In this document: positions 32,480 to 52,008 of the stretch, piece by piece
Numbering within the stretch: the first letter of the stretch is position 1
Layout of the letters: each line of letters starts with the position of its first letter
From: Deltaproteobacteria bacterium
GTDB lineage: Bacteria > Bdellovibrionota_C > UBA2361 > J135
NCBI GenBank assembly: GCA_020635175.1
Contig: JACKAH010000004.1
Coordinates: 51,995-115,994 of the forward strand
Length of the DNA stretch: 64,000 bases
Direction of reading: 5' to 3'
Made by a program: the position numbers and the translations under genes
The notes under the pieces: generated by a model
Database searches by the model: none
What the model saw: only the letters and a program-made list of their open reading frames with translations
What the model was told of the DNA's origin: nothing

Positions 32480-33091
32480 TTAGATGCTAGTAGGTATCCC
32501 TACCTTCTTTGAGCTTACTGCAGCACAATGCAGCTGAGATGGCAGTAATATTGTTGGTGATTTCACACAAACGTCCCACTGCATGCAGAGAGTGTCCATT
32601 TCACAGTTTTCCCCCTGCTTATTGGTTGAGATTGGAGCGGCCGTTGGATCTTGGCATTGTCTAGGTAGAACCACTATCTCACCCTCTTTAAGACTACTAA
32701 TCTGTCCATCCCACTCAAATGCAGTCTTAATTTTATCATCAAAGAGTCTATCAGCTTCACCTAGAACCAAATTCACTGTTTTAGCTATCTGCTGATCAAG
32801 CTTACTTGGATTTGTGCAAAAAGATCTTAAGTAGCCGTAGCTAGTAGAATTAACTGGGAGCTTAAGTTGGTTTGCATTTGGAGCGGTAAGGTTTCCATCA
32901 TTTACGACTTCAGCCATGCTAATGCGAGCAGCAATGATAGCTAACCATTGAGCACCTGATGTGTATTTAGAGTAAGTAACGAAATCGATGGCACCGAAGA
33001 CTAAAAAGACGAGAACTGAAATACTACCTGCTACACTTAGCAAATACGAACCTCTCTCGTTCTCAATTCTTTTTTTACTACCCTTATTCAC
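32480..33091 (-). CDS. TadE/TadF-like pseudopilin (module A), 203 aa
   Basis: TadE-type N-terminus RIENERGSYLLSVAGSISVLVFLVFGAIDFVTYSKY...AIIAARISMA. Clear paralogue of the 197-aa product of 47578..48171. Confidence 0.6.
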   Translation of the reverse strand: MNKGSKKRIENERGSYLLSVAGSISVLVFLVFGAIDFVTYSKYTSGAQWLAIIAARISMAEVVNDGNLTAPNANQLKLPVNSTSYGYLRSFCTNPSKLDQQIAKTVNLVLGEADRLFDDKIKTAFEWDGQISSLKEGEIVVLPRQCQDPTAAPISTNKQGENCEMDTLCMQWDVCVKSPTILLPSQLHCAAVSSKKVGIPTSI

Positions 33092-33119
33092 AACAACCTA
33101 CCCAAAAAATCTTTGCGAG

Positions 33120-33416
33120 CTAAATCTTCCCAACCGGGTAAACTATCTCTTGAGCACGCGGATCCGCCTCATTTGGACTTTCCTTCAGAGGCTTTTTATA
33201 CTTCGAAGACCAAGCAGCTCCTGGATAACTAGTGTATCCTTTCGCAACATCATGTACCTGCTGCTGAATAACTTTGCTTTGAGTCGTCGCAAGAAGTTTA
33301 TAAGTACTCTTTGCTGAGGGTAATCCTATTCCGATTAGAAGCGCCATAACCATGCCAGCTTCCATCATGCTGATTCCAGCTTCATTTCTACGAATTTTTC
33401 TTAGAGATACAGACAT
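33120..33416 (-). CDS. Flp-like prepilin (module A), atypically long (98 aa from ATG 33416)
   Basis: The leader plus hydrophobic core MSVSLRKIRRNEAG/ISMMEAGMVMALLIGIGL resembles the Flp G/XXXXEY processing region (Glu kept, Tyr replaced by Ala). Same operon position as the clearer Flp-like gene at 48179..48403. Confidence 0.45.
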   Translation of the reverse strand: MSVSLRKIRRNEAGISMMEAGMVMALLIGIGLPSAKSTYKLLATTQSKVIQQQVHDVAKGYTSYPGAAWSSKYKKPLKESPNEADPRAQEIVYPVGKI

Positions 33417-33470
33417 AAACAACCCATCCAAAAATATATCTATTCTATCTTATTCAAGTTTCATGCCGCA

Positions 33471-34388
33471 CTATAGTGGTGCATGAACAATATCGTTACC
33501 AAATTCTGCTAGAGGCGCAGTCTCATTCGCATGAAGATCAGTCTCTGTGCTGTGACCATCTGTTCCATCAACAATCGGATCATCGATGTCAGGCCCCGCA
33601 GATTTAATTAACTTAAGCGCTTTAATTGACTTAGCCAGTCTACCAGATTCAGCAACGAAGGACTTTCCAATCTCAAGAAGTATTGGATTTGCTGCAGTTA
33701 GTGAGTTTCCTTCCTGTTCGTTCAGCACCTGAACCACCTCTTCTGAGATAGCTGTAAGCTTAGTGTTAACTTTTGAACTTAGCACAGCAGTATTTAGTTC
33801 ATATTCCTCACCTCGTGCAGCAAGCGCCTGAGGAGCTTTGCTTCTTTGGCGCTCGTATCTTCTCAAAGCGCGAATAGCTCTAGCTTTTCTTTTTCTAAGC
33901 TTTCTCTTAGAGATTTTTCCTGCTGCACTAGCAGATTTTGCTGGAGCTGAAATTATAGGAGCAGATGGCGTCGGAGTTGTTGGCAAACGCACTCCTAATA
34001 CCTGCTGAGTTAATGACTGAGTCATACATACTCCACCTAAAATAAACCTCTTTAAAACTCCAGCTAATGGAGCTGGGAGTGGAGCAGGTCCTGAAATTAG
34101 AGCAGGTGAAATAGTAACTATCTTAAGCCTCGTTGAGCTACTAAGAGAAGAGAAGCAAACACCTGGAGGAGGAGGATTTACGCAATCATTGTAAATATCC
34201 TCAGCGCTCTCTAATGTATCAAAATCAGCTTGTGACATCTGAGCAGAGAACTGCAGAGATAATTTAGCAACGTTTACTGCTCTTAGAGCCATCCCGATAC
34301 ATTGGCTAATCTGAGGACTTTGAGCATTTGCATTTGCGACAAACCCTAAACTAACCAGTGAAGCTAAAAAGTAAGTTTTGACTTTCAT
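33471..34388 (-). CDS. Secreted protein, family D (my label): small Cys-containing N-domain, then low-complexity/basic region, then a helical acidic tail
   Basis: Signal peptide MKVKTYFLASLVSLGFVANANA/QS with GAAGGAG upstream of ATG 34388. Contains the strongly basic stretch KISKRKLRKRKARAIRALRRYERQRSK. No family recognised. Confidence 0.6.
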   Translation of the reverse strand: MKVKTYFLASLVSLGFVANANAQSPQISQCIGMALRAVNVAKLSLQFSAQMSQADFDTLESAEDIYNDCVNPPPPGVCFSSLSSSTRLKIVTISPALISGPAPLPAPLAGVLKRFILGGVCMTQSLTQQVLGVRLPTTPTPSAPIISAPAKSASAAGKISKRKLRKRKARAIRALRRYERQRSKAPQALAARGEEYELNTAVLSSKVNTKLTAISEEVVQVLNEQEGNSLTAANPILLEIGKSFVAESGRLAKSIKALKLIKSAGPDIDDPIVDGTDGHSTETDLHANETAPLAEFGNDIVHAPL

Positions 34389-34416
34389 AACAACTCCTTC
34401 AAAAACCTTATAAATC

Positions 34417-35142
34417 TTAAACGCCTGATGCTGGGATAGGATCACACAACCAACTTAGATTCTCAGGATCCATAGCGTGAACTGCGCCAGGCGTACATGG
34501 GTCACTTGTAAAAGCAGTATTTAACATTGCTCTGACAACAGCTCCATTGTTAATACTAGCTTCCCAGTTAGAAGTAGTATCTTCAAACATAGCGCGGTAC
34601 ATTCTAAATGGACTTGCTTGAATACATGAACCTGTAGTCATAGCGTAGTCTTCTGCTGAAAAGATAAAGCTAAGCGAATCAGTCTTCTCACTGTCGGTTA
34701 AATCATCAATGGTAGAACCCGCAGGATGTCCAAAGTGAGTAAATGCAGTTTTAAGCGTGAATGTTAAAAGTGCGTGATCAAGAGCCTTGGTAGGATCGGT
34801 TGGGTCAACGACTTTCTTATTGATTACTGTGTTTAACATCTCATGAAAACCGAGTGCATATACTCCATGAATTGGATTACCAGGGACACAGTATGCAGGG
34901 CTTCCAAACTGAATTCGGTTGATTATCTCTCTAACTGTATAATCAACTGTTTCTGCCATCTGCTCACAAGTTTCGAGACTTTGATAAGGCTGACCTAAAC
35001 CGTAAGTACATTGGCTAGTAGAACCTGAGTTTGTGTAGTCATTTAACACTCCTAAAACATCCGGTCCCGTAGCTAGGGCTGAGAAAGTTAAGGTTAAGGT
35101 GCTAATTCCTAAGCAGAGAGCATTTCTTACAACACGTTTCAT
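34417..35142 (-). CDS. Secreted six-cysteine protein, family M (my label)
   Basis: Signal peptide MKRVVRNALCLGISTLTLTFSALA with GGAG upstream of ATG 35142. Six Cys in the mature part. Aligns with the products of 37285..38049 and 49179..49979 (NSGSTSQCTYGLGQP...ETC...YCVPGNP...VDPTD...). Confidence 0.65.
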   Translation of the reverse strand: MKRVVRNALCLGISTLTLTFSALATGPDVLGVLNDYTNSGSTSQCTYGLGQPYQSLETCEQMAETVDYTVREIINRIQFGSPAYCVPGNPIHGVYALGFHEMLNTVINKKVVDPTDPTKALDHALLTFTLKTAFTHFGHPAGSTIDDLTDSEKTDSLSFIFSAEDYAMTTGSCIQASPFRMYRAMFEDTTSNWEASINNGAVVRAMLNTAFTSDPCTPGAVHAMDPENLSWLCDPIPASGV

Positions 35143-35170
35143 AATAACAACTCCAAACAAAACCCTAAAA

Positions 35171-36151
35171 TTAAAACATCCCAGTTAGACGCTTAAGCAC
35201 ATGATTATAAATGTAGTTATCTAATGGAGACCCGATTACGTATGGTCCAGTTCCGAGAGGTCCATTTGCACTCGCCAAAAGGTAAGCATCTACGTTAGGA
35301 AATCTACTAGTATTATAATCATAGTAAAAGAAGTCACTCGGAGATGGTGCCATTGCTGGAACAGAACCGTATGCTTCAGTTAACAAAGTAGTAACAATTG
35401 GAGAGATTGGATACTGCTGCCAACTCTGATCAATGAAAGCCATCGCAAAGAAGGCCCAGTAAACATCAGGAAATTTACACAAAATCTGTCCATAAGTTGG
35501 AGAACTCTGGTTATTATCTGTCTCAAACATGTGACAGATAGTTACGGTAAAAGTGTCAGCTAAATCATCAATACATTGCTGGTCGCCTGCAGGGCATCCA
35601 CCGCCTTGAGCGTTTAACTGAGCAGCATCATATCCACGATGATGACCGTAAAGTAAATTAAATCCAAATCTGTATATATTCGGTATCGCTTCACAACCTG
35701 GAAGAGCTTGGCCATCCTGTAAGGAATGTACCTCAGGACAGGTCTGAGAATTATAGTTCTGAACAAAGATTCTTTTGTTCATCTCGTTAATTTGAGAGAA
35801 CACCTGAGCAGCTGTCTGCGGTTGACCAATTGCACAAGTTCCGTTGAATCCTGGGTCGTCGTTGAATGAGTACCAAACAGACTCTTCGAACTGAAGAGCA
35901 ACTGCACTGTTTTGGACATAGCCAGTTATCGGCTCTGGTGTTCCTTCACACTGACCAGACTCACCCATCGTAGCATAAGCAGGGGTAAGGAAAGATGAAG
36001 CATCCATTCCAACTGTACATGAGTCTGTCTGTCCATTGCTTGTTAAAACTCTTCTTGGTGGAAACAGTCCAGCTTGAGCAGAAGCAGTAGAGATAAAGAA
36101 CACTGCTGAAGCAGATGTTAAAATTAGGAACTTATTAAAGTGGCTGAGCAT
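35171..36151 (-). CDS. Secreted cysteine-rich protein, family L (my label)
   Basis: Signal peptide MLSHFNKFLILTSASAVFFISTASA/QA (ATG 36151, GGGAGAG upstream). Shares TDSCTV...GQCEG...ICHMFE...LCKFPDV with the 38066..39214 product. More distantly resembles the two L genes of module B. Confidence 0.65.
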   Translation of the reverse strand: MLSHFNKFLILTSASAVFFISTASAQAGLFPPRRVLTSNGQTDSCTVGMDASSFLTPAYATMGESGQCEGTPEPITGYVQNSAVALQFEESVWYSFNDDPGFNGTCAIGQPQTAAQVFSQINEMNKRIFVQNYNSQTCPEVHSLQDGQALPGCEAIPNIYRFGFNLLYGHHRGYDAAQLNAQGGGCPAGDQQCIDDLADTFTVTICHMFETDNNQSSPTYGQILCKFPDVYWAFFAMAFIDQSWQQYPISPIVTTLLTEAYGSVPAMAPSPSDFFYYDYNTSRFPNVDAYLLASANGPLGTGPYVIGSPLDNYIYNHVLKRLTGMF

Positions 36152-36279
36152 TGTAACTCTCCCAAACAACGATTTTAAAAAACGACTTTCTGCACCCAAC
36201 ACGAAAAGCCGATATCCAAAGTTATTTGAGATTTCGTGCAACATTTATTCCCCAGCGTGCCATAACAATTTGCTTACTT

Positions 36280-36336
36280 GTCCCCAAAATGATGCTTTAT
36301 TGAAGCGACTCAAGTACTTATCTGATCCACCTAAAA
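36280..36336 (-). promoter_or_regulatory. Conserved bipartite element upstream of an L gene (copy 1 of 4)
   Basis: The minus strand reads TTTTAGGTGGATCA-N38-GGGAC. Same 14-mer and same 38-nt spacing as the copies at 39338-39394, 51006-51062 and 52113-52169. A TTGAGT hexamer sits at spacer positions 10-15. Confidence 0.55.
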
Positions 36337-36410
36337 TTAATATTAGTTAAAAATACGAACAGTTCTTATTCAAATTGAGTTTTTAAAGAAGCGCGACTAA
36401 AAGGAAGGAG

Positions 36411-36451
36411 TAAGAAAAAATAGCACTAGCACACCTTAAAGTGTGCTAGTG
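36411..36451 (-). terminator. Rho-independent terminator after the first L-M-D triplet
   Basis: The minus strand has a perfect 11-bp stem CACTAGCACAC/GTGTGCTAGTG (36441-36451 pairing with 36424-36434) and a 6-nt loop, followed by CTATTTTTTCTTA. It lies 34 nt downstream of the stop at 36485. Confidence 0.75.
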
Positions 36452-36484
36452 AGCAATCAAAAAGTATCTTTAATCAGGTCTGAA

Positions 36485-37261
36485 CTAGAATTCCTTTAAC
36501 TGTAATTCATGCCCGCCTGAGGCTTCAGTTGTAACAACAGTATCAATAGTCACAACTCTGTCTGTAGGCTTAGGTGGCTCTACGGTCAGATTAACCTCTT
36601 TTAATACCTGAATAGACTTCTCAAGAATTCTAGCCTTTGTAACCAAGGCAGGAAGAATCTTGGCATAGTGCTGCTTAACCAGCTTCTTTTGATTAAGTAA
36701 GTTCTGGAGATTTGCAATCTCTGTCTTGATTTTACCAAGCTCGCCATCATTAGTATCAGGAGCTTCAGCTGTATGGCCCTCATCTATTGAAGGTTCGATC
36801 TGAGCATCTCCTGAAGCATCAAGTCTTTGTGGCTCTGATAACCCATCAGGTCCAGGCATTGCACTTGTCTCTACAGATTCCTTTGAGCTTAAATCTCTTG
36901 AGCTAGTACTTACCTGCTCAACTGAGGCAGTCAGAGAGGTAGTAGCTGCAATCTGAGTCGAGCTTGCTGTGATTGCTGCTTTCTTAGCTTGAAATTGCAA
37001 TTTCTTTATTCTTTTCTCTATCTGGCCAACGGTAGAGTCACAACCATTATCGATAGAATTTTGAACATTATTAATCGCTGCTGCTAAGTTACTCAGGTCA
37101 AAGCTTTCGACCTCCCCCAGCTTAAGATGATGATCTCCCTGGATAATCTGGTCAAGGAGCCCATAAACACCTTTCACAAAGCAGTTGCTGAACTCTGCAT
37201 TCGCAGCTGGAGCAACTAGGAGCGAGGCAAAAACTGAGGCTAAAATTATTCTCTTCTTCAT
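36485..37261 (-). CDS. Secreted protein, family D (my label): N-domain with 2 Cys, Ser/Thr-rich region, C-terminal coiled-coil-like segment
   Basis: Signal peptide MKKRIILASVFASLLVAPAANA/EF (ATG 37261, AAGAAGG upstream). Low-complexity ITASSTQIAATTSLTASVEQVSTSS. Heptad-like KIKTEIANLQNLLNQKKLVKQHYAKIL. Confidence 0.6.
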   Translation of the reverse strand: MKKRIILASVFASLLVAPAANAEFSNCFVKGVYGLLDQIIQGDHHLKLGEVESFDLSNLAAAINNVQNSIDNGCDSTVGQIEKRIKKLQFQAKKAAITASSTQIAATTSLTASVEQVSTSSRDLSSKESVETSAMPGPDGLSEPQRLDASGDAQIEPSIDEGHTAEAPDTNDGELGKIKTEIANLQNLLNQKKLVKQHYAKILPALVTKARILEKSIQVLKEVNLTVEPPKPTDRVVTIDTVVTTEASGGHELQLKEF

Positions 37262-37284
37262 AGCAAACCTTCTTATCTTTAAAA

Positions 37285-38049
37285 CTAACAAACCAAATCA
37301 GCAGCATCTGAACCAATGTAGTTTGGATCACCAGCTACACAAGGTCCACTTGGATTAGCAGCGTCGTTCTTATCAGCAACTGTTGCTGTAATCATCGCTA
37401 CTGCTTCACTAACATGATCCAACGTAGTAGAGGAAAGTGCTCCTAACGTAGCTGAATTTGATGCTATATAATCAAACATCGCAAAGAAGCTTCCTTTACA
37501 GACATAACCGTATAGGGCTTCAAACACGACTAGACTAAGAACGTCTTCAAACATTTCGTCGTTAGCTGCTTCTGCGGTTCCTGGCGCAACAGCAGGAAGT
37601 CCAAGTAATGCAGCTTGCTTGTTATTATAGTGATCAATAGCAGCCCAGATTAGGCGATTCATAGGATGCTTAAGAGTCTCTGAGAAATTATCCGGGTTAA
37701 CAAACGAACCGTGTCTAATTAGCTCTGCGAATCGAAAGGCTCCATAGACTTCAAATGCATCTAATGGATTTCCCGCTGCGCACCAAAACATATTATCAAG
37801 CTGAAGTGCGGCAGTTCGATACTTAGTCTCATAGTATATCTTATCATTTAGCCCAGGATCACAGCTCAAAAGTGTAGCTGTAGGCGTCCCAGCGCCATAG
37901 ATACACTGACCAGCACTACCTGAGTTATCAACCTTTGACAGCACGGAGAAGATAGACCACTCAGCAACTGCTACGTTTGATAGGCCCATTACGATAGTGC
38001 ATGCCAGGAAAGAATTTCTTAATAATGTTTTCATTGCTATTCTCTTCAT
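37285..38049 (-). CDS. Secreted six-cysteine protein, family M (my label)
   Basis: Signal peptide (MKRIAMKTLLRNSFLACTIVMGLSNVAVA/EW). Six Cys in the mature part, the last one being the C-terminal residue. NSGSAGQCIYGAGTP...LSC...WCAAGNP...VNPDN aligns with the other M proteins. Confidence 0.65.
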   Translation of the reverse strand: MKRIAMKTLLRNSFLACTIVMGLSNVAVAEWSIFSVLSKVDNSGSAGQCIYGAGTPTATLLSCDPGLNDKIYYETKYRTAALQLDNMFWCAAGNPLDAFEVYGAFRFAELIRHGSFVNPDNFSETLKHPMNRLIWAAIDHYNNKQAALLGLPAVAPGTAEAANDEMFEDVLSLVVFEALYGYVCKGSFFAMFDYIASNSATLGALSSTTLDHVSEAVAMITATVADKNDAANPSGPCVAGDPNYIGSDAADLVC

Positions 38050-38065
38050 CTTTGAACCTCTAAAA

Positions 38066-39214
38066 TTATTGAGCATTACCGCAATACATATCGAACGCGA
38101 GCAGAACCATCTTTGTAAACGGGTCTGATAATGTTAAAGGTTGGCCAGTAATCGGACTAATAGTTGTCCCAAGTCCAATCACATTCTCAACATTATGAAG
38201 CTTTCCAGTGGCATCCCGATGACACAAAGCGGTTGAAGGAAAGATTGGGTTGTAGCTAGCATCAACTGTGTAGCTTCCAATCGGTCCATAAAGAACCTCA
38301 ATGAACTCTTTCATTCCGACTTCACCAAAAACCTGTCCTGAACCGGCCCAAGCTTCGTAGCTAAAAACTTTAGCTGGGTGAGCGCTTGAAAGTGGATGCA
38401 ATGTAGTGTCTTTATGCAAAGTCCAAGGTCCAGCGATGGTGTCAGGATACTTACAGTACGTAGTCTGCACCGGTAATCCTGTGCCTGGGTCAATAATAGT
38501 TTGACCAGTAATAGGATCTACTTTATCTCCGATCTCATACAGGTTACAGATTGCAGCTAAAAGGAAGTTAAACATCGACTTAACGCAACCCCAATCTGGA
38601 CAAGCTGTGTATGGCCCAACAGCTTTTGCAAGCGAAATTGGATCTTGAAAAAGTGGATTTGACGGGTCAAGGTTTCTTCTAATGATACCGTAAGTAATCC
38701 CGGTTACAATTTTCTCAAGGTGACCATTAGCATGGTAACAATTTGAAGCAGAACCTGGTCCCTGTGTGATGGCCTCTGCCTCTTTACAGATGTAAGGGTT
38801 CTGAATATCTACCATCTTAGAAAGAAAGTCATCTGCTAACGCTACTAGCTTTCCTCCGTCGAGTTCCTCTCCAGGAATAACTGCACCCGGTAACAAATAA
38901 CCAGGGTCACATTCAACTCCAGAAGTAGCAACGGTTGACCAGATAGCTTGGGTCGCACCCATTTCAGCTATGCTAGTGTTTTCTAATAAAATCCCAGTCT
39001 GAGGATCCGAGCCACCAGTACATGTTGCTGTACCAACTGAGACATCAACATAATTTGGACCTGGAGGATCAAGAACTGTACAGGTATCAGTATTGCTACT
39101 TGCAGCAAACAGGGGACCAACATCTGGTAATCCCGGTTCACTTGATAACTGCGCGTTAGCTAGGCTTGTGAAAGTTAGTAAACAAGCACCAAAGGCGAGA
39201 ATATGTTTATTCAT
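38066..39214 (-). CDS. Secreted cysteine-rich protein, family L (my label)
   Basis: Signal peptide MNKHILAFGACLLTFTSLANA/QL. TDTCTV...ATCTGG...ICNLYE...YCKYPDT parallels the 35171..36151 product. Confidence 0.65.
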   Translation of the reverse strand: MNKHILAFGACLLTFTSLANAQLSSEPGLPDVGPLFAASSNTDTCTVLDPPGPNYVDVSVGTATCTGGSDPQTGILLENTSIAEMGATQAIWSTVATSGVECDPGYLLPGAVIPGEELDGGKLVALADDFLSKMVDIQNPYICKEAEAITQGPGSASNCYHANGHLEKIVTGITYGIIRRNLDPSNPLFQDPISLAKAVGPYTACPDWGCVKSMFNFLLAAICNLYEIGDKVDPITGQTIIDPGTGLPVQTTYCKYPDTIAGPWTLHKDTTLHPLSSAHPAKVFSYEAWAGSGQVFGEVGMKEFIEVLYGPIGSYTVDASYNPIFPSTALCHRDATGKLHNVENVIGLGTTISPITGQPLTLSDPFTKMVLLAFDMYCGNAQ

Positions 39215-39337: not shown

Positions 39338-39394
39338 GTCACTGAACAGATTAGTTCTATAAAGGAATCAATCGCTTAAATGATCCAGCTAAAA
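39338..39394 (-). promoter_or_regulatory. Conserved bipartite element upstream of an L gene (copy 2 of 4)
   Basis: The minus strand reads TTTTAGCTGGATCA-N38-GTGAC, with TTGATT at spacer positions 10-15. It lies 124-180 nt upstream of ATG 39214. Confidence 0.55.
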
Positions 39395-39445
39395 TGATTT
39401 CTTAGACAAAAATGGTGTTTTTTCTTAGATGGTTTTTTGAGGTTC

Positions 39446-42334: not shown

Positions 42335-42337
42335 CGA

Positions 42338-43789: not shown

Positions 43790-43792
43790 ATT

Positions 43793-43808
43793 TACACATA
43801 TATGTGTA
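43793..43808. promoter_or_regulatory. Perfect 16-bp palindrome, candidate HicB operator
   Basis: TACACATATATGTGTA, ending 4 nt upstream of the hicA ATG. A TTGCAA hexamer lies just upstream in the direction of transcription. Confidence 0.5.
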
Positions 43809-43875
43809 TCTTGCAACAGATTGCTTTTTTATCAAATAGTACTCAGCTATTTTTATAGAAGATTGCTTGAATATT

Positions 43876-43894: not shown

Positions 43895-43895
43895 A

Positions 43896-46817
43896 CTACT
43901 TACTTGGTTTAAAGCGATGTATGATTCGATTAAGCTCAATTGCAACTCGATGAAAAATTCTTTGCTGGAACTCAGAGTAATTTTCATCATCTGCCCCGCC
44001 AGGATTATACAGCTTAGAGACACGCACTAGATCTATTCCTGCTCGAGTGTGTTTCTTATGACAGGTTTCAGGAGTCGTAGATGAGATAGCAGGTTCTCCA
44101 TCTAATTGAGCACTACAATCAAGTCCAAAGTAATTACAATCCTTACAAATTGCATATGCATAGCTACTATTAGTGGCAGCTGCCCTACCAATTGGCTCTC
44201 TCAATCCATCAATAAATACTTTGCGCTTATTTTCATCAGCTGCATTGGTTGGATAATCGATCATTACGATTACTACCTCGATTCCATCATCTACCATGCG
44301 ATGAATGACCTGGAGAGATTCCTTTACGGCTCGTATGAATGGCGCTCCATCAGGTTCCTGTACAGCCTGGCCAGCTCTAACTGGAAGTACATCTGCGACG
44401 GGCTCATTTGGAAACCAAGCACTATGGTGCCTCCCATCAAGCACATCGTACATACTCAGATTACTAACACCGTCGGTAAAAAGAACTGCAACACGCTTAA
44501 CATCATTAGGATTCGGTGAAACACCTGTTGAACTGTTTAAGATATTATAAGCATTTACCAATGCTCCGGAGGTAAAGTCATCGACCAAAGGTTCACGCTT
44601 TGGATAGACATTTAAGCTCTCAACAGATGTAAGATAAAGATCTCTCGCGTTCGGCGTTAAGTCAGGAATCGAAGGCGAGGTCCTAGGAAGATCTATCGGG
44701 TATCCAGACTTAGTGAATCCACCAGCACGTAAAGCAGAGAGTGCAGAGGCTGCATTTAAATTACTTGGATTTAATGTTGTATCAATTGCAGTTAAGTCAG
44801 AGCAAACTCTAAAGGGGTTAGTTACATCTGATGGCACAACCTCGTCACGATTGTAACAGGCGTTATCTATGCCACCAGTTTGAGTATTACACCCAGTTGC
44901 GTTTGAAACCTGAGCATCGTTTCTATCTCGAGACATATAAGGAGGAATTCTCTGTCCAATTGTCACCCAAGTATTAACAAAACATGGGCTTAATCTATTA
45001 TATGGTGGATTTAGATCTGGTTGAGGCAAAAGAGAATCTTTACCATCAGGTGTTTGAACAGTTCCAAACAAAATTGACATCTGATCTCCAAAACAATCAC
45101 CAGGATAAATTTCATTGGCAGTAACCTCAATACTTCCACCATTTGGAATACCATTTGCGTATTCAGGTAGGTCGTCGTCTTCATTTGAGGTAGTTAACCA
45201 GTTCTTATTAGAGCGAAAGACAAAATTTAATAGTCCTCTCTCAAGTGTTGGAATTTGATGTTTTGAGTTATCAGCGCAGACAGTGTTTGGTTCAAGTACG
45301 CGACTATAATCAAATGCATCAGGTAAAGCTGAAAACGCATGTAGCCCAGGTCTTACCTCATGATTCATCTCCCTTGCACAGATAGTCATGGGCTGAAGGA
45401 TTCTATCAAATGCACTCTGCCGATTCAGAGCTGTGTAGTTTTGATAGTTAGCTGGCAAGCCATCATCCGTAGTATCCGTTGGTAATGCATCGGTATTACC
45501 AAACTGCTCAGCAACAAAATCTCTGCCATTTAAGGTTCCCGGTAGAGAAACCGGATTGGGACCAAGAGTGTGTACATCTAAGGTACTATATATATCAGCT
45601 CCATTTGTTGTACTGTATGTTCCCCACTCCCCACCTGATCTAATCTCATATGGTACAAGTGGCATAATCGGCATAATCCAGTTGCTGTATGCTAAAGCTC
45701 CAAATGGAATCTCATTATCATCTAACATATACATAAACTGCTGAATCATGCGCTGATACCAAAGCTTATGTGGTGCAAAACAACGCTGCGCTAACTCATT
45801 CTGAGTCATCACACCGTGGCGATATTTATAATTCGTATAGTTAGGTTGCTGCTCAGCCCAAGCTTTTGTCTTATTTCCACCATTTATACCTGGAATATAC
45901 TGAACCGGATCTGGTGGAAGAGGAGCGGCATAGGTACTTACGTTACCGTAGCCCTCAGTTTGGGGAACAACATCCGGCATAGATTGTAGATATGCAGAGT
46001 TGATAGTCGACAGTGAAAGAATCGTGTCACCAACTGAGTCAACACCATTTCCGCCAGGCATTGTGATCTCTTTTCTAGAGAATGGCAGATCATATGGAGT
46101 GTATGGACCAGCTACTCCTACCGCTCCAGGAAATGAAATCTGCTGTGTCGGTAAATAAGAGTCGTACATAAATGGAAGAGATCGATCGATTAAAAGATCC
46201 TCTTCCGCTGAAGTTAACACCGGATATCCCGCATCGGAGTGTAAAAAAGGAGGTGGTGTGGTATCTGAATTAAAGGCTTTAACTATAGACCTAGAGTAGT
46301 CTGCCATAATCATCACAACCGGTGGCTTTTTTTCCATACACTGCTCAGCGCCAGCTATGTAGGGGTTGCTGCTTAAGTACTGCAGAAATGTGAAAGTCGA
46401 TTTGCAATTATCAATCTTAAGGCAAGCTTCTTCAGGTTGAATATTTCCAGGGACAATATTTCGGGGTGTATATGTGAAATTAACATCACATTTATAACGT
46501 CCATCATTAAATCTAGCTTCACTAAGTGGGAATGAAGCAGTGCTACAATCGATTGAACCTAAATCAAATCTAGTCTTTAGTTGATTGCAAGTGATTCGCT
46601 GCATCTCAGAGCTGTTTGTCGCTCCATTTGCAACCGCGTTTAATGTTGAAGCAACAAAATTATTCAACTCTAAACGGGTTGTGTACATCTGCTCGGTTTT
46701 GAGCACAATCATCCCGTACATAAAGAGCACGGTAAAGCCAATCAAAAAGAAGATAAGGATAAAACCTTGTTGCTTCTTAGAAAATTTTGCACCTTCATTT
46801 TTCTGCTTGTAGCTCAT
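43896..46817 (-). CDS. TadG-like giant pseudopilin (973 aa) with a split vWA-like domain retaining MIDAS-type residues (module B)
   Basis: N-terminus KQQGFILIFFLIGFTVLFMYGMIVLKTEQMYTTRLELNNFVASTLNAVANG. PPVVMIMADYSRS (DxSxS, Asp at aa 173) and RVAVLFTDG (Asp at aa 782). Strongly conserved central block shared with 39446..42334 (KYRHGVMTQNELAQRCFAPHKLWYQRMIQQFMYML...). Confidence 0.65.
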   Translation of the reverse strand: MSYKQKNEGAKFSKKQQGFILIFFLIGFTVLFMYGMIVLKTEQMYTTRLELNNFVASTLNAVANGATNSSEMQRITCNQLKTRFDLGSIDCSTASFPLSEARFNDGRYKCDVNFTYTPRNIVPGNIQPEEACLKIDNCKSTFTFLQYLSSNPYIAGAEQCMEKKPPVVMIMADYSRSIVKAFNSDTTPPPFLHSDAGYPVLTSAEEDLLIDRSLPFMYDSYLPTQQISFPGAVGVAGPYTPYDLPFSRKEITMPGGNGVDSVGDTILSLSTINSAYLQSMPDVVPQTEGYGNVSTYAAPLPPDPVQYIPGINGGNKTKAWAEQQPNYTNYKYRHGVMTQNELAQRCFAPHKLWYQRMIQQFMYMLDDNEIPFGALAYSNWIMPIMPLVPYEIRSGGEWGTYSTTNGADIYSTLDVHTLGPNPVSLPGTLNGRDFVAEQFGNTDALPTDTTDDGLPANYQNYTALNRQSAFDRILQPMTICAREMNHEVRPGLHAFSALPDAFDYSRVLEPNTVCADNSKHQIPTLERGLLNFVFRSNKNWLTTSNEDDDLPEYANGIPNGGSIEVTANEIYPGDCFGDQMSILFGTVQTPDGKDSLLPQPDLNPPYNRLSPCFVNTWVTIGQRIPPYMSRDRNDAQVSNATGCNTQTGGIDNACYNRDEVVPSDVTNPFRVCSDLTAIDTTLNPSNLNAASALSALRAGGFTKSGYPIDLPRTSPSIPDLTPNARDLYLTSVESLNVYPKREPLVDDFTSGALVNAYNILNSSTGVSPNPNDVKRVAVLFTDGVSNLSMYDVLDGRHHSAWFPNEPVADVLPVRAGQAVQEPDGAPFIRAVKESLQVIHRMVDDGIEVVIVMIDYPTNAADENKRKVFIDGLREPIGRAAATNSSYAYAICKDCNYFGLDCSAQLDGEPAISSTTPETCHKKHTRAGIDLVRVSKLYNPGGADDENYSEFQQRIFHRVAIELNRIIHRFKPSK

Positions 46818-46823
46818 CTGCTT

Positions 46824-47501
46824 TTATCTCTTTGGAACAAAGACCCCTGACTCATTAAACTTTCCATACCAAAGAAAGATTCGATACGTACCTCTACAAG
46901 CCCAAACAAAATATGGAGCGTACTCAAAGTAGACCGGATATACTTCATTGCTAGACGGCGTTGGCATAACATCACGATCTAAAATGTATTCAGTCTCTTT
47001 AGGATTAAGCACTGTTCCTTTAACCTTATCATAGTATTCAAAGGCCTCAGTTCTTAAACTTTCAAGAGTAGTGCCAGCTGACGGGGCAGCAACCGATGGG
47101 ACACAAAAATTATCAGGATTTGATGAGCTTAAGACTCTTCCAAAATTAGCTGGATCTGTTGTTTCAACATCCAAGTAACAGATCGTAATTTTACAAGTTA
47201 TCTTAGATGAATTTCTGTAGAGCGTTGAACCAAAGTTCATGTTATGTGCTAGATTTGCCTCTAACTCGTCAACTAACTCTTGATGAACATTTGCCTCAGT
47301 GAATTTTACTAAATCACCACCAACATTTGTTGTAAAAGCTTCGAGGGTAGGAGTTGTAAAGACCGAGAAGACAGAAGAGTTAACGGTCCTACGAATATCC
47401 TCCATACCGTGCAAACCTAATATTCCATTTAAGACGGCAAGCAAAACAACGAAAGTAACTAAAACCTCAATCACGGCAGAGCCTGGCTCTTGCCTTTTCA
47501 T
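46824..47501 (-). CDS. TadE-like pseudopilin, second type (module B)
   Basis: MKRQEPG/SAVIEVLVTFVVLLAVLNGILGLHGMEDIRR carries a G/XXXXE-type processing motif. The start at ATG 47501 was chosen by homology with 42338..43015; the track ORF extends to 47567 (GTG). Confidence 0.6.
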   Translation of the reverse strand: MKRQEPGSAVIEVLVTFVVLLAVLNGILGLHGMEDIRRTVNSSVFSVFTTPTLEAFTTNVGGDLVKFTEANVHQELVDELEANLAHNMNFGSTLYRNSSKITCKITICYLDVETTDPANFGRVLSSSNPDNFCVPSVAAPSAGTTLESLRTEAFEYYDKVKGTVLNPKETEYILDRDVMPTPSSNEVYPVYFEYAPYFVWACRGTYRIFLWYGKFNESGVFVPKR

Positions 47502-47577
47502 CTTGACGCAAATGGATCTAACTATCTGTAACATAGTGAAACAATAAGCCATTACTGTGCGCAACACTATATCAAAT

Positions 47578-48171
47578 TTATATAACGTTCATCTCAGAAC
47601 TAGCTGTATGACACACTGTGTGAGAATGTAAAAAGATTGATGGTGGCCGTACACATACTTGCCACTGAGAACATGCATCTGAGCTTTGACAGTTAGCTGC
47701 ATTCTCTCTAACAGTACTTCCTGGGTCAGAGCATTCGCGTGGAACTATCACTACCTCACCCTCTTTTATACTCTCAGTGTTGAGATCCCAGTTTACCGCT
47801 GTCTTTACCTTATTTCCAAAGACACGTTGCGCTTCACCTAATGCTAAGTTTATCACCCTTCTTTTTTGAGCTTGCATGCGTCCGCCACAATAGCTCATTA
47901 AATAGCTATCATCTTGAGAAGATACTGGAAGCTTTAATAAGCCTAACACAGGAGCGCTCCCAGTTTTATCATTAGGTCGCTCTGCAATGCTTACTCTAGC
48001 AGCTGTCATGGCGACCCACTGCGCAGCAGATGAGTATCTAGAGATTGAGATAAAATCAAAAGCTGAGAATATAATTGTCGAGATAAACACAAATGAGATT
48101 GCAGCCCCAATTGTGTATGCACCACGCTCGTTCGAAAACATTTTACTACCCATATTATTTTGACCCGACAT
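47578..48171 (-). CDS. TadE/TadF-like pseudopilin (module B), 197 aa
   Basis: FSNERGAYTIGAAISFVFISTIIFSAFDFISISRY...AMTAARVSIA. Paralogue of 32480..33091 along its whole length, including the C-terminal Cys pattern. Confidence 0.6.
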   Translation of the reverse strand: MSGQNNMGSKMFSNERGAYTIGAAISFVFISTIIFSAFDFISISRYSSAAQWVAMTAARVSIAERPNDKTGSAPVLGLLKLPVSSQDDSYLMSYCGGRMQAQKRRVINLALGEAQRVFGNKVKTAVNWDLNTESIKEGEVVIVPRECSDPGSTVRENAANCQSSDACSQWQVCVRPPSIFLHSHTVCHTASSEMNVI

Positions 48172-48178
48172 CTTTATT

Positions 48179-48403
48179 CTAATGTATCTCTACTGAATTT
48201 GCAGCTACTGCGCCTCTTATCAAAGCTGAAGGATATGCTGCTGTCGCGTTAACAAAGCTTTGCTTCTGGCGTTTATCAAAGTCTGTTAACGCATTTTTAA
48301 TCGCTGGAAAGCCAGATAACGCAACTAAAGTAATCATAGCAGCTACAAGCATAAACTCTGAAGCGATTGAACCTCTTTCATTTCGTCTCTTTAAACTTTC
48401 CAT
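48179..48403 (-). CDS. Flp-like prepilin (module B), 74 aa
   Basis: MESLKRRNERG/SIASEFMLVAAMITLVALSGF fits the Flp leader plus G/XXXXE[YF] motif and hydrophobic core. AGGGGA upstream of ATG 48403. Confidence 0.6.
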   Translation of the reverse strand: MESLKRRNERGSIASEFMLVAAMITLVALSGFPAIKNALTDFDKRQKQSFVNATAAYPSALIRGAVAANSVEIH

Positions 48404-48446
48404 AAATTTATCCCCTAAACTTAAGCGTGCTTTAATCAAGTTCTAA

Positions 48447-49148
48447 CTACTGTGAAATCACATGAATCTCTGCACTATCATCAATTCTAACTCTACCGTC
48501 AGCATCATCCTGACCTGCAACTGGCTTTTGTAATCTCTCTAAGTTGTAAAGCATCATCTCAAAGATAGCTTTATACTGAGACATAGTAGAAACAGTTGGT
48601 CTATTACTGCCGCTGTCTCCATTCCCATCAGGGTCAGTAGTACTTTCACCGTCATTTGGATTAATTATTGTATTAAGACTATCTGAGCGATCCAAGGTTT
48701 TTGAAGCTCTATCACTTAAGCTATCCGCTGTTCTTTTAGTGCTGCTTGAAGTATCAGCTTCAAGACTAACTTGCATAGTGTTCGGCGAACGTAAAGCAGA
48801 CTCTGCGCCACCATCATCGTCAGAAACGACCATTGGAGCAGCTGGCCCAGTACAGGTATACATTTCAGCCATGAAATCTTTGACCTGTTGAATCGTATTA
48901 TCCAATACCTGCTGATTTGGGTTTTGAGAAAATGTTAACGAAGCATACTGATATGAAAGATATCGCATGATGTAGTTAAGCCACTCAGGCGAACATGGAG
49001 CTGGCCTAGGCACTGCTGTTGCTGAGCCAAATGGGCCTGCAACTTGCGTAGCGCTCACCCCAGGCTGCACTGAAGACTGGGCATAGACACTAAGTGTTAA
49101 AAGCCCTTGTAGAATAAAACCTAAAACTAATACCTTTTTCATTTTCAA
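48447..49148 (-). CDS. Secreted protein, family D (my label)
   Basis: Signal peptide MKMKKVLVLGFILQGLLTLSVYA/QS. Two-Cys N-domain, a Ser/Asp/Thr-rich low-complexity middle, and a helical segment followed by an acidic tail. Confidence 0.6.
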   Translation of the reverse strand: MKMKKVLVLGFILQGLLTLSVYAQSSVQPGVSATQVAGPFGSATAVPRPAPCSPEWLNYIMRYLSYQYASLTFSQNPNQQVLDNTIQQVKDFMAEMYTCTGPAAPMVVSDDDGGAESALRSPNTMQVSLEADTSSSTKRTADSLSDRASKTLDRSDSLNTIINPNDGESTTDPDGNGDSGSNRPTVSTMSQYKAIFEMMLYNLERLQKPVAGQDDADGRVRIDDSAEIHVISQ

Positions 49149-49178
49149 CCTCTAATCAAGACAACTAAAATTTAAACC

Positions 49179-49979
49179 TTAAGGCAAACAGTACAAACTC
49201 TTTAAAAAACCGTTCCACATATATGGAGAGTACGTAAAGTAGTGTGTAGCTTGATCGTCACAAACACCATCTGCTCCCTGATCAAAGATCTGATTTAGCA
49301 CAGACAAAACTGTTGGTGCTTCCCATGTATTGTTAAACCAAATCGTTGGATTTGAATGCATAATCTTTAGGATCTTAACGAAATCAGGATACTGACAAGT
49401 GTCTTCTGGTAAGGCAGTAGTTCTAGAAAGATAGAACTGCTCTGCTGCACGAAGAGTGTAGTTAATTTCGTTATTCCAATCTAATGGCCTAGCTTCATTA
49501 TTATAAATCTCTTCAGGAGTTGCATAGTTATCTCCAGGATTGTGAATCTTATAAACTGCAGAAGCGACCATAAATAATAATGGGTGAACAATCTGATTGT
49601 TATTTGGATCAACTCTGACATCCCAACGAATTGCGCCAAAGGTTTGCCAAACGGAAGCTAACGCGCGGTATGGCATTAACTGACCAAGAGCTGTTGATTT
49701 TGTGCAATCAAGTAAAGGGTTATTAACATTCATCTGTAGTGTGCGCGTCTCAGCATCTTGCGCAACCACGTTGCCTACAGCAACACAATCAAGAGTTGAG
49801 GTTTGTCCTGTTTGTGGGTTAGCAACTTCACAAGCGCCAGGCAATCCACCTTGTGTGTTCATCGTAATCTGATCAGCAGTGCTTGTGATATCATCAAGCG
49901 TACCCGCTGAGACACTAAATGGTGCTGTGATTGATAGAATTAAAGCTAATTTATAAAACTTACAAAACATCTTCTTCAT
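49179..49979 (-). CDS. Secreted six-cysteine protein, family M (my label)
   Basis: Signal peptide ...LILSITAPFSVSA/GT. Six Cys in the mature part, the last 3 residues from the C-terminus. GACEV...LDC...LDC...VDPNN...TCQYPD aligns with the other M proteins. Confidence 0.6.
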   Translation of the reverse strand: MKKMFCKFYKLALILSITAPFSVSAGTLDDITSTADQITMNTQGGLPGACEVANPQTGQTSTLDCVAVGNVVAQDAETRTLQMNVNNPLLDCTKSTALGQLMPYRALASVWQTFGAIRWDVRVDPNNNQIVHPLLFMVASAVYKIHNPGDNYATPEEIYNNEARPLDWNNEINYTLRAAEQFYLSRTTALPEDTCQYPDFVKILKIMHSNPTIWFNNTWEAPTVLSVLNQIFDQGADGVCDDQATHYFTYSPYMWNGFLKSLYCLP

Positions 49980-50019
49980 TTTTCTACCCTTATTATTAAA
50001 ACCTTTTTAACCTCTAAGC

Positions 50020-50913
50020 CTAAATACACACTGCATTAGCTATGTAGTACTGTAATCCAAGCGTACTGAACCAAGTTTGGTAGTTCTGTGCTGTGACACC
50101 GTTGCAAGCACCGTTCAATGGATCAAAGAGAACTTTAGCTGCAACCTCTAGACAACTTTCACCTGAGCCTGGTGTACAATCTTTCAAATCAAGTTTGTTC
50201 TTAATTACTGAATCAGGACTATTAAGATCAGCAGCGACATTTAAGAGTAAGCGATTCATGTCTGAAGATTTACAGATTATCTTTTCAGCAAATGCACTCT
50301 GTTGATTAGTTTCGACAAAGTAAATGAACTGCATCAAATCAGCGAAAAGTTGTGCTAGCGAGCTGTAATCACAAGCTGCGCCACAATTTGAAAAGTGATC
50401 AGCATCTGCAAATAAGCCTACGCCAAGTGCTTTCTCTGCGGTTTGCCGAAGTGCATGCCAGCGCACATCTAGGCATGATTCAGGTGATGTAACACAGCCT
50501 GGGTTTTGCTCATTGTTAAATTGGCCAAAGAAAGCAGTGGCAAGACTTGCAAAGATTGAACGAGCATCACCCGCTAAAGCATCAACCGTAACTATGTTTA
50601 AAAGCGGATAGCCCTCAACACAGCTAGCACCGTATAAAAATGGAGCATTTAAACCGGAAACAGCAACCGACACTAAGGCACCAATCACACCAGCATCCTG
50701 AGACTGAGTAGCACCTTCACATTGGCGATAAAAATTGTTGCTACTTGCTGCGATTTGAAGACTAATAGAGTTACTTGTTGAGAGTTCGCAAGTATCAGGA
50801 GAAACCGCATTAGTTGAATATATATCACCTAAGTTAAACGGTGCTGCATACGCAGAAGCAACTGAAATTGCCTGTATTAAGAGGATGACCGAGAAGCGTT
50901 TAAAACTAGCCAT
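50020..50913 (-). CDS. Secreted twelve-cysteine protein, family L (my label)
   Basis: Signal peptide MASFKRFSVILLIQAISVASAYA/AP (ATG 50913). Twelve Cys at positions alignable with the neighbouring paralogue 51112..52008 (PDTCEL...RQCEG...SCVEGYP...). Confidence 0.65.
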   Translation of the reverse strand: MASFKRFSVILLIQAISVASAYAAPFNLGDIYSTNAVSPDTCELSTSNSISLQIAASSNNFYRQCEGATQSQDAGVIGALVSVAVSGLNAPFLYGASCVEGYPLLNIVTVDALAGDARSIFASLATAFFGQFNNEQNPGCVTSPESCLDVRWHALRQTAEKALGVGLFADADHFSNCGAACDYSSLAQLFADLMQFIYFVETNQQSAFAEKIICKSSDMNRLLLNVAADLNSPDSVIKNKLDLKDCTPGSGESCLEVAAKVLFDPLNGACNGVTAQNYQTWFSTLGLQYYIANAVCI

Positions 50914-51005
50914 TATATTACCCCACAATAAACCAGAAACACATAAACTAAACATAAGACAGTGCAAAACTCGTGCTACAAAATGTGGGAAATCATCCCA
51001 CTTTT

Positions 51006-51062
51006 GTTACTAAAACAAACCTTTCCCAAGTAAATACAGCTAACTACCTGATCCACCTAAAA
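51006..51062 (-). promoter_or_regulatory. Conserved bipartite element upstream of an L gene (copy 3 of 4)
   Basis: The minus strand reads TTTTAGGTGGATCA-N38-GTAAC. Four nt further on comes the hairpin GTGGGA-N5-TCCCAC (50985-51001). Confidence 0.55.
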
Positions 51063-51111
51063 AAACCCCTTAAATTAAAATGGTAACTTTTCGTAGATTT
51101 TGCAACAGAGC

Positions 51112-52008
51112 TTAGAAGTAGTTGCAAACTGCATCAGCTAAATGAGGTGGCAACTGATAAACAGATTGCCAGTTTGTGTAGACACCAAACCCATCACGCT
51201 CACAAGCTCCACCTAGATCAAAGAGATTTCGAACAACAAGTTCTGCACAACTCTCTGTGTATCCAGCACTACACGCTTTGAAATTAAGCTCTGTATTGAC
51301 GATTGAGTTTGGATTTTGAAATGCCTGATGCATCCTAAAATAGGTTTCATTTACATCATTTGACTGACATTCAATTCTGTTATTGTTTGGACTTAGCTGG
51401 TCCGTCACAACAAAAAACGAAAACTGTAGAACCTCTGCAAAAACTCTCGATCGTTGCTCTTCATCACAATTGACACTACAGCTTTCGTAGTAGCTCGGAT
51501 CCCCATGTAGCGCCTGTCCTAACATATGATCCGCTACTTGACGCTGAAAGGAATAGGTCGCTTCTGTGCAACTTTCTAAGTCATTTAGACAGTTAGTAGT
51601 GTTAGATTCATTTAAAAATTGGCCCTGAAATGCAGTGGAAATGCTTGCAAAAATCGAACGAACATCACCTAACATACCGTTAAAAGTGGCGATGTTTTCA
51701 ACCGGATAGCCTTGAAAACAGCTAGAACCAAATGTGTGTGCAGCCTTATATCCTGCTGACATTACTGTAACCATGGCAGTAGCTGCGCCAGCATCCTGTA
51801 AAAGAGTCTGTCCTTCACAACTTTTATCGAAACCGTTAGCAGAGCCAAAGACATTGCTAACTCTATTATTTGCTGAAAGCGTACAACTGTCCTGCAAGGA
51901 TGAATACTCTAGTGAGCTTCCTAGATTTAGTGGCAAAGCAAACGAACTATTAGAAAGACAACAAAGTTGAGCAGCTAAAAAACCAGACAACAAAAGTAAC
52001 CGTGTCAT
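51112..52008 (-). CDS. Secreted twelve-cysteine protein, family L (my label)
   Basis: Signal peptide MTRLLLLSGFLAAQLCCLSNSSFA/LP (ATG 52008). Twelve Cys in the mature part (QDSCTL...KSCEG...SCFQGYP...). Paralogue of 50020..50913. Confidence 0.65.
   Translation of the reverse strand: MTRLLLLSGFLAAQLCCLSNSSFALPLNLGSSLEYSSLQDSCTLSANNRVSNVFGSANGFDKSCEGQTLLQDAGAATAMVTVMSAGYKAAHTFGSSCFQGYPVENIATFNGMLGDVRSIFASISTAFQGQFLNESNTTNCLNDLESCTEATYSFQRQVADHMLGQALHGDPSYYESCSVNCDEEQRSRVFAEVLQFSFFVVTDQLSPNNNRIECQSNDVNETYFRMHQAFQNPNSIVNTELNFKACSAGYTESCAELVVRNLFDLGGACERDGFGVYTNWQSVYQLPPHLADAVCNYF

Follow-up and report, generated by a model that had tools for sequence, protein, structure and literature searches.

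Two sets of pilin-like genes

The subject of this analysis is a 64-kb stretch of contig JACKAH010000004.1 (hereafter the window), which belongs to a metagenome-assembled genome (MAG) of a Deltaproteobacteria bacterium with locus tags H6619_028xx-029xx. The window carries two sets of genes for proteins that resemble the pilins and minor pilins of Tad (type IVc) pili. Between positions 32480 and 52053 we found 20 intact open reading frames (ORFs) in an uninterrupted run, all on the minus strand. An earlier sequence-only reading had proposed the order and sizes of these 20 genes, and the ORF listing bore them out. The motifs that it had cited were all present, namely RNERG↓SIASEF, NERG↓AYTI, NERG↓SYLL, PG↓SAVIEV and RLNNAIISALNAA, where the arrow follows the last residue of a leader.

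Set A consisted of four consecutive genes. The Flp-like pilin gene g05 (48179..48439) was an 86-aa ORF, or 74 aa when read from MESLKRR, with the leader RNERG↓SIASEF, a mature part of ~63 aa and the C-terminal motif YPSAL. The TadE-like minor pilin g06 (47578..48171; 197 aa) had the N-terminus NERG↓AYTIG, in which the Glu at position +5 after the leader (Glu+5) is lost. The second TadE/TadF-like minor pilin, g07 (46824..47567), termed TadE'-like below, was a 247-aa ORF, or 225 aa from MKRQEPG↓SAVIEV. The last gene, g08 (43896..46817), encoded a giant TadG-like minor pilin of 973 aa with the N-terminus QQG↓FILIFF.

In set B, the Flp-like pilin g19 (33120..33431) was a 103-aa ORF, or 98 aa from MSVSLRK, with the leader RNEAG↓ISMMEA, a mature part of 78 aa and the C-terminal motif YPGAA. 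The TadE-like g20 (32480..33091; 203 aa) started with NERG↓SYLLS and had also lost Glu+5. The TadE'-like g11 (42338..43015; 225 aa) carried RQDSA↓NVLVE, and the giant TadG-like g12 (39446..42334; 962 aa) carried GAG↓YVIFFF. Each giant protein contained 18 Cys residues, and the smaller pilins had 4-6.

We compared all window products against each other with BLASTP. The giant pair g08/g12 shared 47% identity (E = 0), the TadE-like pair g06/g20 43% (E = 3e-56) and the TadE'-like pair g07/g11 38% (E = 2e-49). The Flp-like g05 and g19 showed no significant BLAST similarity (E = 0.5), and all that they had in common was the leader and, at the C-terminus, YP(x)A(L/A). By BLASTP, the claim that each pilin component forms a diverged paralogous pair was borne out for the three larger components and not for the Flp-like one. 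Judged by motifs, both Flp-like products were short, had a basic leader ending in Gly and a Glu+5 with an aromatic or hydrophobic residue after it, and fell within the ~50-80 aa expected of a mature Flp (63 aa for g05 and 78 aa for g19).

Conserved cassette, leader motifs and distance from pilus machinery

The giant proteins form a rare family. Apart from g08, a word-indexed search of 5.8 billion proteins returned only the paralogue g12 and one fragment, which came from a 'Candidatus Dadabacteria' MAG. When 1.84 billion cluster representatives were searched exhaustively with a HMMER profile, the family grew to 17 proteins, with lengths of 900-1240 aa. The ten clusters that we looked up were singletons or had two members, and came from MAGs or metagenome assemblies; three of the homologous loci were in MAGs titled 'uncultured Bdellovibrionales bacterium'. 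The 'Dadabacteria' fragment matched g08 at 50%, and g12 matched g08 at 48%. As the fragment is as close to g08 as g12 is, the divergence of g08 and g12 is old.

Loci holding homologues of window genes were labelled L002, L006 and so on. Upstream of the giant gene, these loci contained a Flp-sized gene, a ~190-240-aa homologue of g06/g20 and a ~235-265-aa homologue of g07/g11. We read this cassette (Flp, TadE-like, TadE'-like, TadG-like) at L002, L006, L019, L007, L008, L009, L013, L021, L010, L022 and L023, and it was present at every locus with enough sequence. The placement of the Flp-like gene varied. It lay on the opposite strand in L021 (1568-1891, minus strand) and probably in L007 (gap at 2409-2934), and downstream of the giant gene in L023 (12832-13008). 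In L006 and L019, one cassette was located directly upstream of actA, the same position as that of the window module; the window locus is therefore an expansion of an ancestral single-copy arrangement. A functional tie between the module and alternative complex III, whose gene actA it abuts here and in L006/L019, was considered and rejected as shared synteny, because L013, L010, L022 and L023 do not have that neighbour.

At L013, which is in a Bdellovibrionales MAG, we also observed a second pilin-like set beside the homologous cassette (13989-17611, minus strand). It lies on the opposite strand and is unrelated to the cassette by sequence. Its three products have 180, 249 and 781 aa; the 249-aa one carries G↓IALVE, and the largest starts with a TadG-like N-terminus. 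Several tip-like sets per locus may be common in the Bdellovibrionales lineage.

Profile models of pilins failed on the window proteins, and we therefore tested pilin identity by other routes. Leaders were compared among positional orthologues from L002, L006, L007, L008, L010, L013, L021, L022 and L023. A prepilin-type leader, made of a basic stretch ending in Gly (rarely Ala), was followed by ~20 hydrophobic residues with Glu at +5, and this arrangement was kept at 20-40% identity. Glu+5 occurred in seven of the eight members of the Flp-like family, the eighth having Asp; the leaders included G↓TAIIEY (L022), G↓VAYWEY (L008), G↓ASIAEF (L013) and G↓SIASEF (g05). It was invariant in the g07/g11 family (9/9 aligned), with G↓SAVIE in g07 and A↓NVLVE in g11, and kept in 7/9 of the g06/g20 family. 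In the giant family, the Gly was followed by a hydrophobic, usually aromatic residue, and Glu+5 never occurred. In the type II secretion system (T2SS) and in type IVa pili, Glu+5 is missing from a single minor pilin, namely the cap (GspK, PilX-type). The giant protein shares this trait, which fits an apex position.

The Pfam cutoffs are 32.2 bits for Flp_Fap (PF04964) and 22.9 bits for TadE (PF07811). The window proteins fell short of both: g05 and g19 gave no match to PF04964 at E ≤ 1, and g06, g07, g11 and g20 gave none to PF07811. Orthologues came nearer. Flp_Fap scored 18.7 bits (E = 0.0015) on the L013 protein and 14.4 bits on that of L022, both sub-threshold. The L022 protein L022_E215, which belongs securely to the g06/g20 family (67 bits against its profile), matched TadE with 20.8 bits (E = 4e-4) over profile positions 1-39 of 43, just below the cutoff. 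When 22 members of the small-pilin families were scanned, TadE (2/22, best E = 0.003) and Flp_Fap (E = 0.0015) were the top-listed Pfam families. The N_methyl model (PF07963; G↓F(T/S)LIE) matched none of these 22 members and none of the window proteins.

We predicted the structure of g08 with AlphaFold2 from a 17-sequence alignment (mean predicted local distance difference test score (pLDDT) 61.7; predicted template modelling score 0.67). The model begins with a 49-residue helix (residues 17-65), which is followed by a β-sheet (residues 97-173), at pLDDT ~80; as modelled, this helix and sheet have the layout of a pilin. The C-terminal α/β region (residues 740-973) was predicted with pLDDT of 80-95. 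Two strands, ending in DYSRS (173-177) and TDG (781-783), recall the metal ion-dependent adhesion site (MIDAS) motif of VWA domains, with ~600 residues between them. The DxSxS and TDG motifs were intact in g08 and several homologues and degenerate in g12 (DFSSP and TNG) and others. The top Foldseek matches of the model included MIDAS/VWA domains (8ql1, 3ibs, 1n9z), all with E ≥ 0.17, and the C-terminal fold of the giant protein is possibly of VWA/MIDAS origin. Taken together, the leader motifs, the sub-threshold profile scores and the AlphaFold model point to the four core proteins being divergent Flp, TadE-like (two kinds) and TadG-like minor pilins.

A genuine VWA domain (PF00092, E = 2e-10) is present in a 652-aa protein encoded ~140 bp past the last window gene at the right end (L016, 11571-13529). 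This protein has no sequence kinship with the TadG-like proteins.

The cassette is remote from the machinery of a pilus. We scanned the non-overlapping window ORFs of at least 120 aa with Pfam for machinery and mobility genes. No secretin, ATPase, platform protein or peptidase was found, in line with the lack of Tad machinery noticed in the sequence-only reading, and the scan likewise returned no integrase or transposase, as that reading had held. A further ~6.5 kb and ~5 kb beyond the window ends contained the VWA protein and hut genes, and no machinery. Within ±10 kb of the cassette in L010, L022 and L023 there was no machinery either, and the neighbours were housekeeping genes. From the window and these three loci, remoteness from the machinery is a property of the whole family.

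Secreted proteins, upstream element and HicAB

The pilin-like genes were accompanied by ten genes for secreted proteins, labelled L (four), M (three) and D (three). A canonical Sec signal peptide was recognised in 10/10. The L and M proteins are acidic and Cys-rich, with 7-16 Cys each. Before set A lay g01 (L-a1; 51112..52053), a 313-aa ORF with 16 Cys, a likely start at M16 (position 52008) and the signal peptide end SNSSFA↓LP; g02 (L-a2; 50020..50967), a 315-aa ORF with 14 Cys and VASAYA↓AP; g03 (M-a; 49179..49979), with 266 aa and 7 Cys; and g04 (D-a; 48447..49148), with a signal peptide, a Cys-x47-Cys spacing and a 134-aa tail rich in D/E/S/T/P/G/N/Q. Six further genes lay between g12 and g19. 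These were g13 (L-b1; 38066..39214; 382 aa, 12 Cys), g14 (M-b1; 37285..38076; 263-aa ORF), g15 (D-b1; 36485..37291; Cys-x47-Cys and a disordered-type tail), g16 (L-b2; 35171..36244; 357-aa ORF with a likely start at M32), g17 (M-b2; 34417..35160; 247-aa ORF) and g18 (D-b2; 33471..34445; Cys-x43-Cys and a 184-aa tail).

Pfam and NCBIfam models gave no family match for the L, M and D products, and no toxin, enzyme or adhesin domain. BLASTP paired g01 with g02 (38% identity, E = 1e-65), g14 with g17 (25%, E = 5e-12) and g13 with g16 (22%, E = 6e-5). We rejected the idea that L, M and D are three homology classes, because profile-profile and phmmer comparisons showed homology within tandem pairs only and none across the L-a, L-b, M and D groups. 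In the M proteins, three Cys positions were invariant across six aligned sequences and four across the three window proteins, and a C-terminal Cys was shared. The M protein g03 is the positional counterpart of M-like genes in L013, L002 and L021, and showed weak similarity to a 249-aa protein of L013 and to the L002 counterpart. With the M-family alignment, the word-indexed search of 5.8 billion proteins returned this genome's own proteins only, and an AlphaFold2 model of g14 built from the window sequences alone was unusable (pLDDT 34.6). The D architecture, i.e., a signal peptide, Cys-x(38-53)-Cys and a tail, was common to 9/9 D-position proteins compared, which represent eight distinct loci since L019 is near-identical to L006. 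The tails are 78-184 residues long and consist of 46-66% D/E/S/T/P/G/N/Q, a composition with which they are probably disordered.

M and D genes preceded the Flp-like gene in L002, L013 and L021. Only D was present in L006 and L019, where the contig ends upstream, and other small secreted proteins preceded Flp in L007 and L008. The most distant loci, L010 and L022, had no M/D-like neighbours, and in L023 there were unrelated small secreted proteins on the other strand only. The ancestral core thus did not include the accessory genes, which also diverge much faster than the pilins do.

All four L genes have a conserved region of ~100 nt in front of them. The core of this region, ATTTTAGGTGGATCAG, was located on the minus strand before g16 (36322..36337), before g13 (39380..39395, two mismatches) and before g02 (51048..51063, one mismatch), and a motif scan revealed a degenerate copy, ATTTGACCTGGATCAC, before g01 (~52155..52170). 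With up to three mismatches, the core matched the window five times, compared to 0.9 expected. The block 3′ of the core before g16 and g13 resembles a sigma-54 -24/-12 promoter (GGGAATA-N4-TTGCA/T). Before g01 and g02 this block has AG in place of GG, and as two of the four copies deviate, the sigma-54 reading is tentative. The shared element was absent before g11 and hicAB, and from the related loci.

A terminator-like hairpin with a 12-bp stem and a T-run follows g15 (36424..36451, minus strand). It was the only noteworthy result of generic sigma-70 promoter and terminator scans, which gave no enrichment over shuffled sequences. In a repeat search, no inverted repeats indicative of an invertible, shufflon-type switch came up. 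The likely transcription units are [g01], [g02-g08, possibly through hicAB into g11-g12], [g13-g15] and [g16-g20], and the element in front of the L genes points to one common regulator for the four L-led units.

Exactly between the two pilin sets lies a HicAB pair (43197-43816, minus strand). The toxin gene hicA (43604..43816) matched PF07927 with 32 bits against a cutoff of 27. The adjacent downstream gene encodes a HicB-like antitoxin of 135 aa (43197..43604) with a C-terminal helix-turn-helix (HTH) that matched PF01381 (HTH_3, 32 bits against 23) and PF13560, and the two reading frames overlap by 1 nt. HicA and HicB are the only ones among the 20 products that were confirmed by Pfam/NCBIfam. 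The pair was missing from every related locus that we read, which suggests a later insertion at the duplication junction.

Relation to known systems and other features of the window

As reported by Herrou et al. 2025 (PMC12075869), the Kil Tad-like pilus of Myxococcus xanthus has four paralogous KilL/KilM/KilN clusters, homologues of TadE, TadF and TadG, which form interchangeable heterotrimeric Tips. Three of these sets (tip1-3) are encoded in clusters of their own, apart from kil cluster II. The exposed end of the tip is made by the large KilN, the Tip complexes are rich in predicted disulfides, and the short Flp adapter minor pilins KilK and KilO, of which kilO lies within the tip3 cluster, join the tip to the filament. 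The authors' hidden Markov models (HMMs) detected tip1-4 in Myxococcota only, and tip-like sets in Bdellovibrio and Bradymonas emerged by structural search only.

In architecture and probable logic, the Kil Tips are the closest known match to the window sets. Both have three pilin-like genes, two small ones and a very large one with a non-pilin distal domain, as well as many cysteines and a short Flp-type pilin within a tip cluster (kilO). Both also occur as several paralogous sets outside the neighbourhood of the machinery. Both belong to predatory or Bdellovibrio-like lineages, and sequence profiles miss the Kil relatives outside Myxococcota. The window sets differ from the Kil sets in that their TadG-like protein belongs to a separate, tiny family (17 representatives), in that every cassette of the family has its own Flp-like gene, and in that two sets are adjacent in one locus, whereas those of Kil are scattered. 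Predation, dependence on a needleless type III secretion system (T3SS*) and heterotrimers belong to the description of Kil. The core cassette would thus be a highly divergent addition to the Tad minor-pilin tips, placed there by its architecture and not by Kil-family sequence.

The canonical tadE-tadF-tadG genes of Aggregatibacter, Pseudomonas and Caulobacter resemble the cassette in the order Flp ... TadE, TadF, TadG, in the leader G↓xxxxE and in the large last subunit, TadG, with a possible VWA-like region. In contrast to them, the window proteins stay below the Pfam thresholds (PF07811, PF13400, PF04964), the cassette lies outside a tad operon, and the giant protein has 900-1240 aa with DxSxS and TDG ~600 residues apart. 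A 2026 preprint reports that the tad genes of Bdellovibrio bacteriovorus are dispersed and include a lone tadG, a tip gene needed for efficient prey invasion (bioRxiv 10.64898/2026.07.08.737194). The hit locus of the same species encodes the small secreted, disordered Bd0108 and its secreted partner Bd0109; both are transcribed together with genes of the Tad type and influence how pili are extruded (PMC3818213). Bd0108 resembles the window D proteins in being secreted and largely disordered, which we take as an analogy only; Bd0109 is an RHS/YD-repeat protein, unlike any window L or M (PMC3818213).

We consider it probable that the locus encodes two alternative tip sets of a Tad pilus, each with its own Flp-type pilin, which serve a machine encoded elsewhere and are accompanied by lineage-specific secreted accessories. 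Each set would supply one short pilin of the Flp type, a pair of TadE/TadF-like pilins and one giant TadG-like pilin, and a TadV/CpaA-type prepilin peptidase from elsewhere in the genome would remove their leaders by cutting behind the conserved Gly. By packing their N-terminal helices together, the three larger pilins would form a tip complex to prime the Tad filament and cap it, with the ~800-residue Cys-rich body of the TadG-like protein, possibly including a VWA/MIDAS-derived C-terminal fold, as the exposed apex. The Flp-like protein would link the tip to the filament as a KilO-like adapter, or could be the filament subunit itself. Each set would then yield a tip of its own, and the two alternatives would differ in surface specificity. 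As for L, M and D, these ten Sec-exported proteins would be co-regulated accessories in four units, each L-led behind the shared element. Their site of action would probably be the periplasm or the tip, where they could be tip-associated, chaperone-like or regulatory partners.

The sequence-only reading had likewise proposed two alternative tip or filament sets for a Tad machine elsewhere. Its proposal fits the leaders, the sub-threshold HMM scores, the structural model and the published precedent. Further points in favour of tip sets are the conservation of the four-gene cassette, its distance from machinery, the three homologous loci in Bdellovibrionales MAGs and the many cysteines of the pilin-like proteins. 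Support from profile HMMs, on which that reading had formally staked its assignments, did not materialise: there was no Flp, TadE, TadG or VWA match for any window protein. Several results weigh against two Tad tip sets. Among the 18 non-HicAB products of the module, the Flp, TadE, TadG, VWA and N_methyl models of Pfam and NCBIfam found no match, even at E ≤ 1, and ten TadG-like homologues had no Pfam domain, including PF13400 and VWA. Both window copies of the g06/g20 family (G↓AYTIG and G↓SYLLS) have lost Glu+5. In the g08 model, the stretches 214-309 and 482-675 are unreliable, and Foldseek against the Protein Data Bank (PDB) gave a best E of 0.17, with no significant match; profile searches of the three pilin families against PDB sequences returned nothing meaningful. 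Set B (g19, g20, g11, g12) is divided between two probable transcription units, g11-g12 and g16-g20, a split that suggests a past rearrangement of a tandem array. The ten L/M/D genes, which like HicAB are embedded in the locus, have no counterpart in the available part of the Kil description, and for L/M/D this counts against the proposal as well.

The same observations bear on three other explanations. In one, a short (pseudo)pilus of the Tad type, with the TadE/TadE'/TadG-like complex as its cap, would move the L, M and D proteins through a secretin, in analogy to the piston of type II secretion, so that these proteins would be cargo (effectors, adhesins) or outer parts of the tip. Such filament-coupled export or display, which we hold to be unlikely, would account for the Sec signal peptides of all ten proteins, the Cys-rich and acidic character of L and M, the M and D genes before Flp (L002, L013, L021; D in L006 and L019; other secreted proteins in L007 and L008) and the shared element heading each L-led unit. 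The much faster divergence of the accessories is also as expected of surface or effector proteins. However, none of the L/M/D proteins has a domain of a toxin, an enzyme or an adhesin, no usable model of M was obtained, and the absence of M/D-like neighbours in L010 and L022, with only unrelated secreted genes in L023, places the accessories outside the ancestral core.

Alternatively, the pilin-like proteins could stay unassembled in the inner membrane or periplasm, with a relic N-terminus, and form a static envelope complex with L/M/D, for example for VWA-type adhesion or sensing. The failure of every family HMM, the absence of machinery near every locus checked and the two TadE-like copies without Glu+5 would agree with this. 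We find it quite improbable, since lineages at 20-40% identity would hardly keep Gly-1 and Glu+5 under purifying selection unless the proteins underwent prepilin processing and filament packing, every cassette includes a short Flp-like protein, and the layout equals that of the Kil Tips, which have been studied experimentally. It is highly improbable that the proteins serve a type IVa pilus or T2SS, as minor pilins or pseudopilins (FimU/PilVWX-PilY1-like or GspH-K-like), and not a Tad system. A layout of several small pilins and one very large, possibly VWA-bearing protein does recall PilY1 operons, and a remote site is typical of type IVa minor-pilin operons. The minor-pilin/PilY1 and GspH-I-J-K tips likewise combine several minor pilins with one large cap lacking Glu+5, and some species have alternative sets. 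Nevertheless, the window proteins belong to another pilin class: the N_methyl signature (G↓FTLIE) and its Pfam match are absent in all members, the leaders are of the Flp/TadE type (G↓xxxxE[FYV]), and the major-like subunit is Flp-sized (60-80 aa). The giant protein, moreover, has a pilin-type N-terminus, whereas PilY1 is Sec-exported and is not a pilin.

Returning to the two Tad tip sets, an extended version makes the M-D-(L) proteins partners of hitherto unrecognised, Bdellovibrio-lineage-specific Tad tips, either as cargo or effectors or as displayed parts for the tip or for prey recognition. In this version, D would regulate extension in the manner of Bd0108, and the duplicated locus would amount to a compact 'tip plus payload' arsenal whose genes are co-regulated, possibly through a sigma-54-type promoter and a common upstream activator site. 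We regard this version as rather unlikely. The idea of interchangeable tips was published in 2025, which lowers the surprise of finding alternative sets; what is new here is that the tip family is an orphan, that M and D are conserved partners, that the cassette is amplified locally and that a regulatory element is shared. If the tip reading is true, the interchangeable Tad tip principle of Myxococcus reaches a separate, metagenome-only lineage whose tip family escapes current profile libraries, and annotation pipelines gain new families to model. Secreted proteins would then be tied genetically to the tip in a defined unit of six genes (M, D, Flp, two TadE-like, TadG-like), giving a handle on the target specificity of Tad tips and on the delivery or display of further proteins.

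According to Pfam, the module is flanked by actA-F (alternative complex III) on one side and by an AMP-binding acyl-CoA synthetase on the other, in agreement with the flanks read from the sequence, and the other substantial ORFs of the window with Pfam assignments are housekeeping only. The GC content is flat at ~0.41 (~41%) throughout, and tRNA and Rfam scans of the window returned no matches. Four large ORFs, located at 13456-17338 (plus strand), 1361-3166 (minus strand) and 56890-58452 (plus strand), encode products of 751, 541, 601 and 520 aa without a Pfam family; the sole weak match was to F5/8 type C in the 541-aa product. An isolated flagellar hook gene with FlgE domains (58748-60016, plus strand) lies amid metabolic genes, with other flagellar genes not nearby. 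We must also note a single 1898-aa ORF (7044-12740, plus strand) that combines a TamB domain (residues 728-1081), three POTRA repeats and an Omp85 barrel (residues 1616-1898), an apparent TamB-TamA/BamA-type fusion in one polypeptide.

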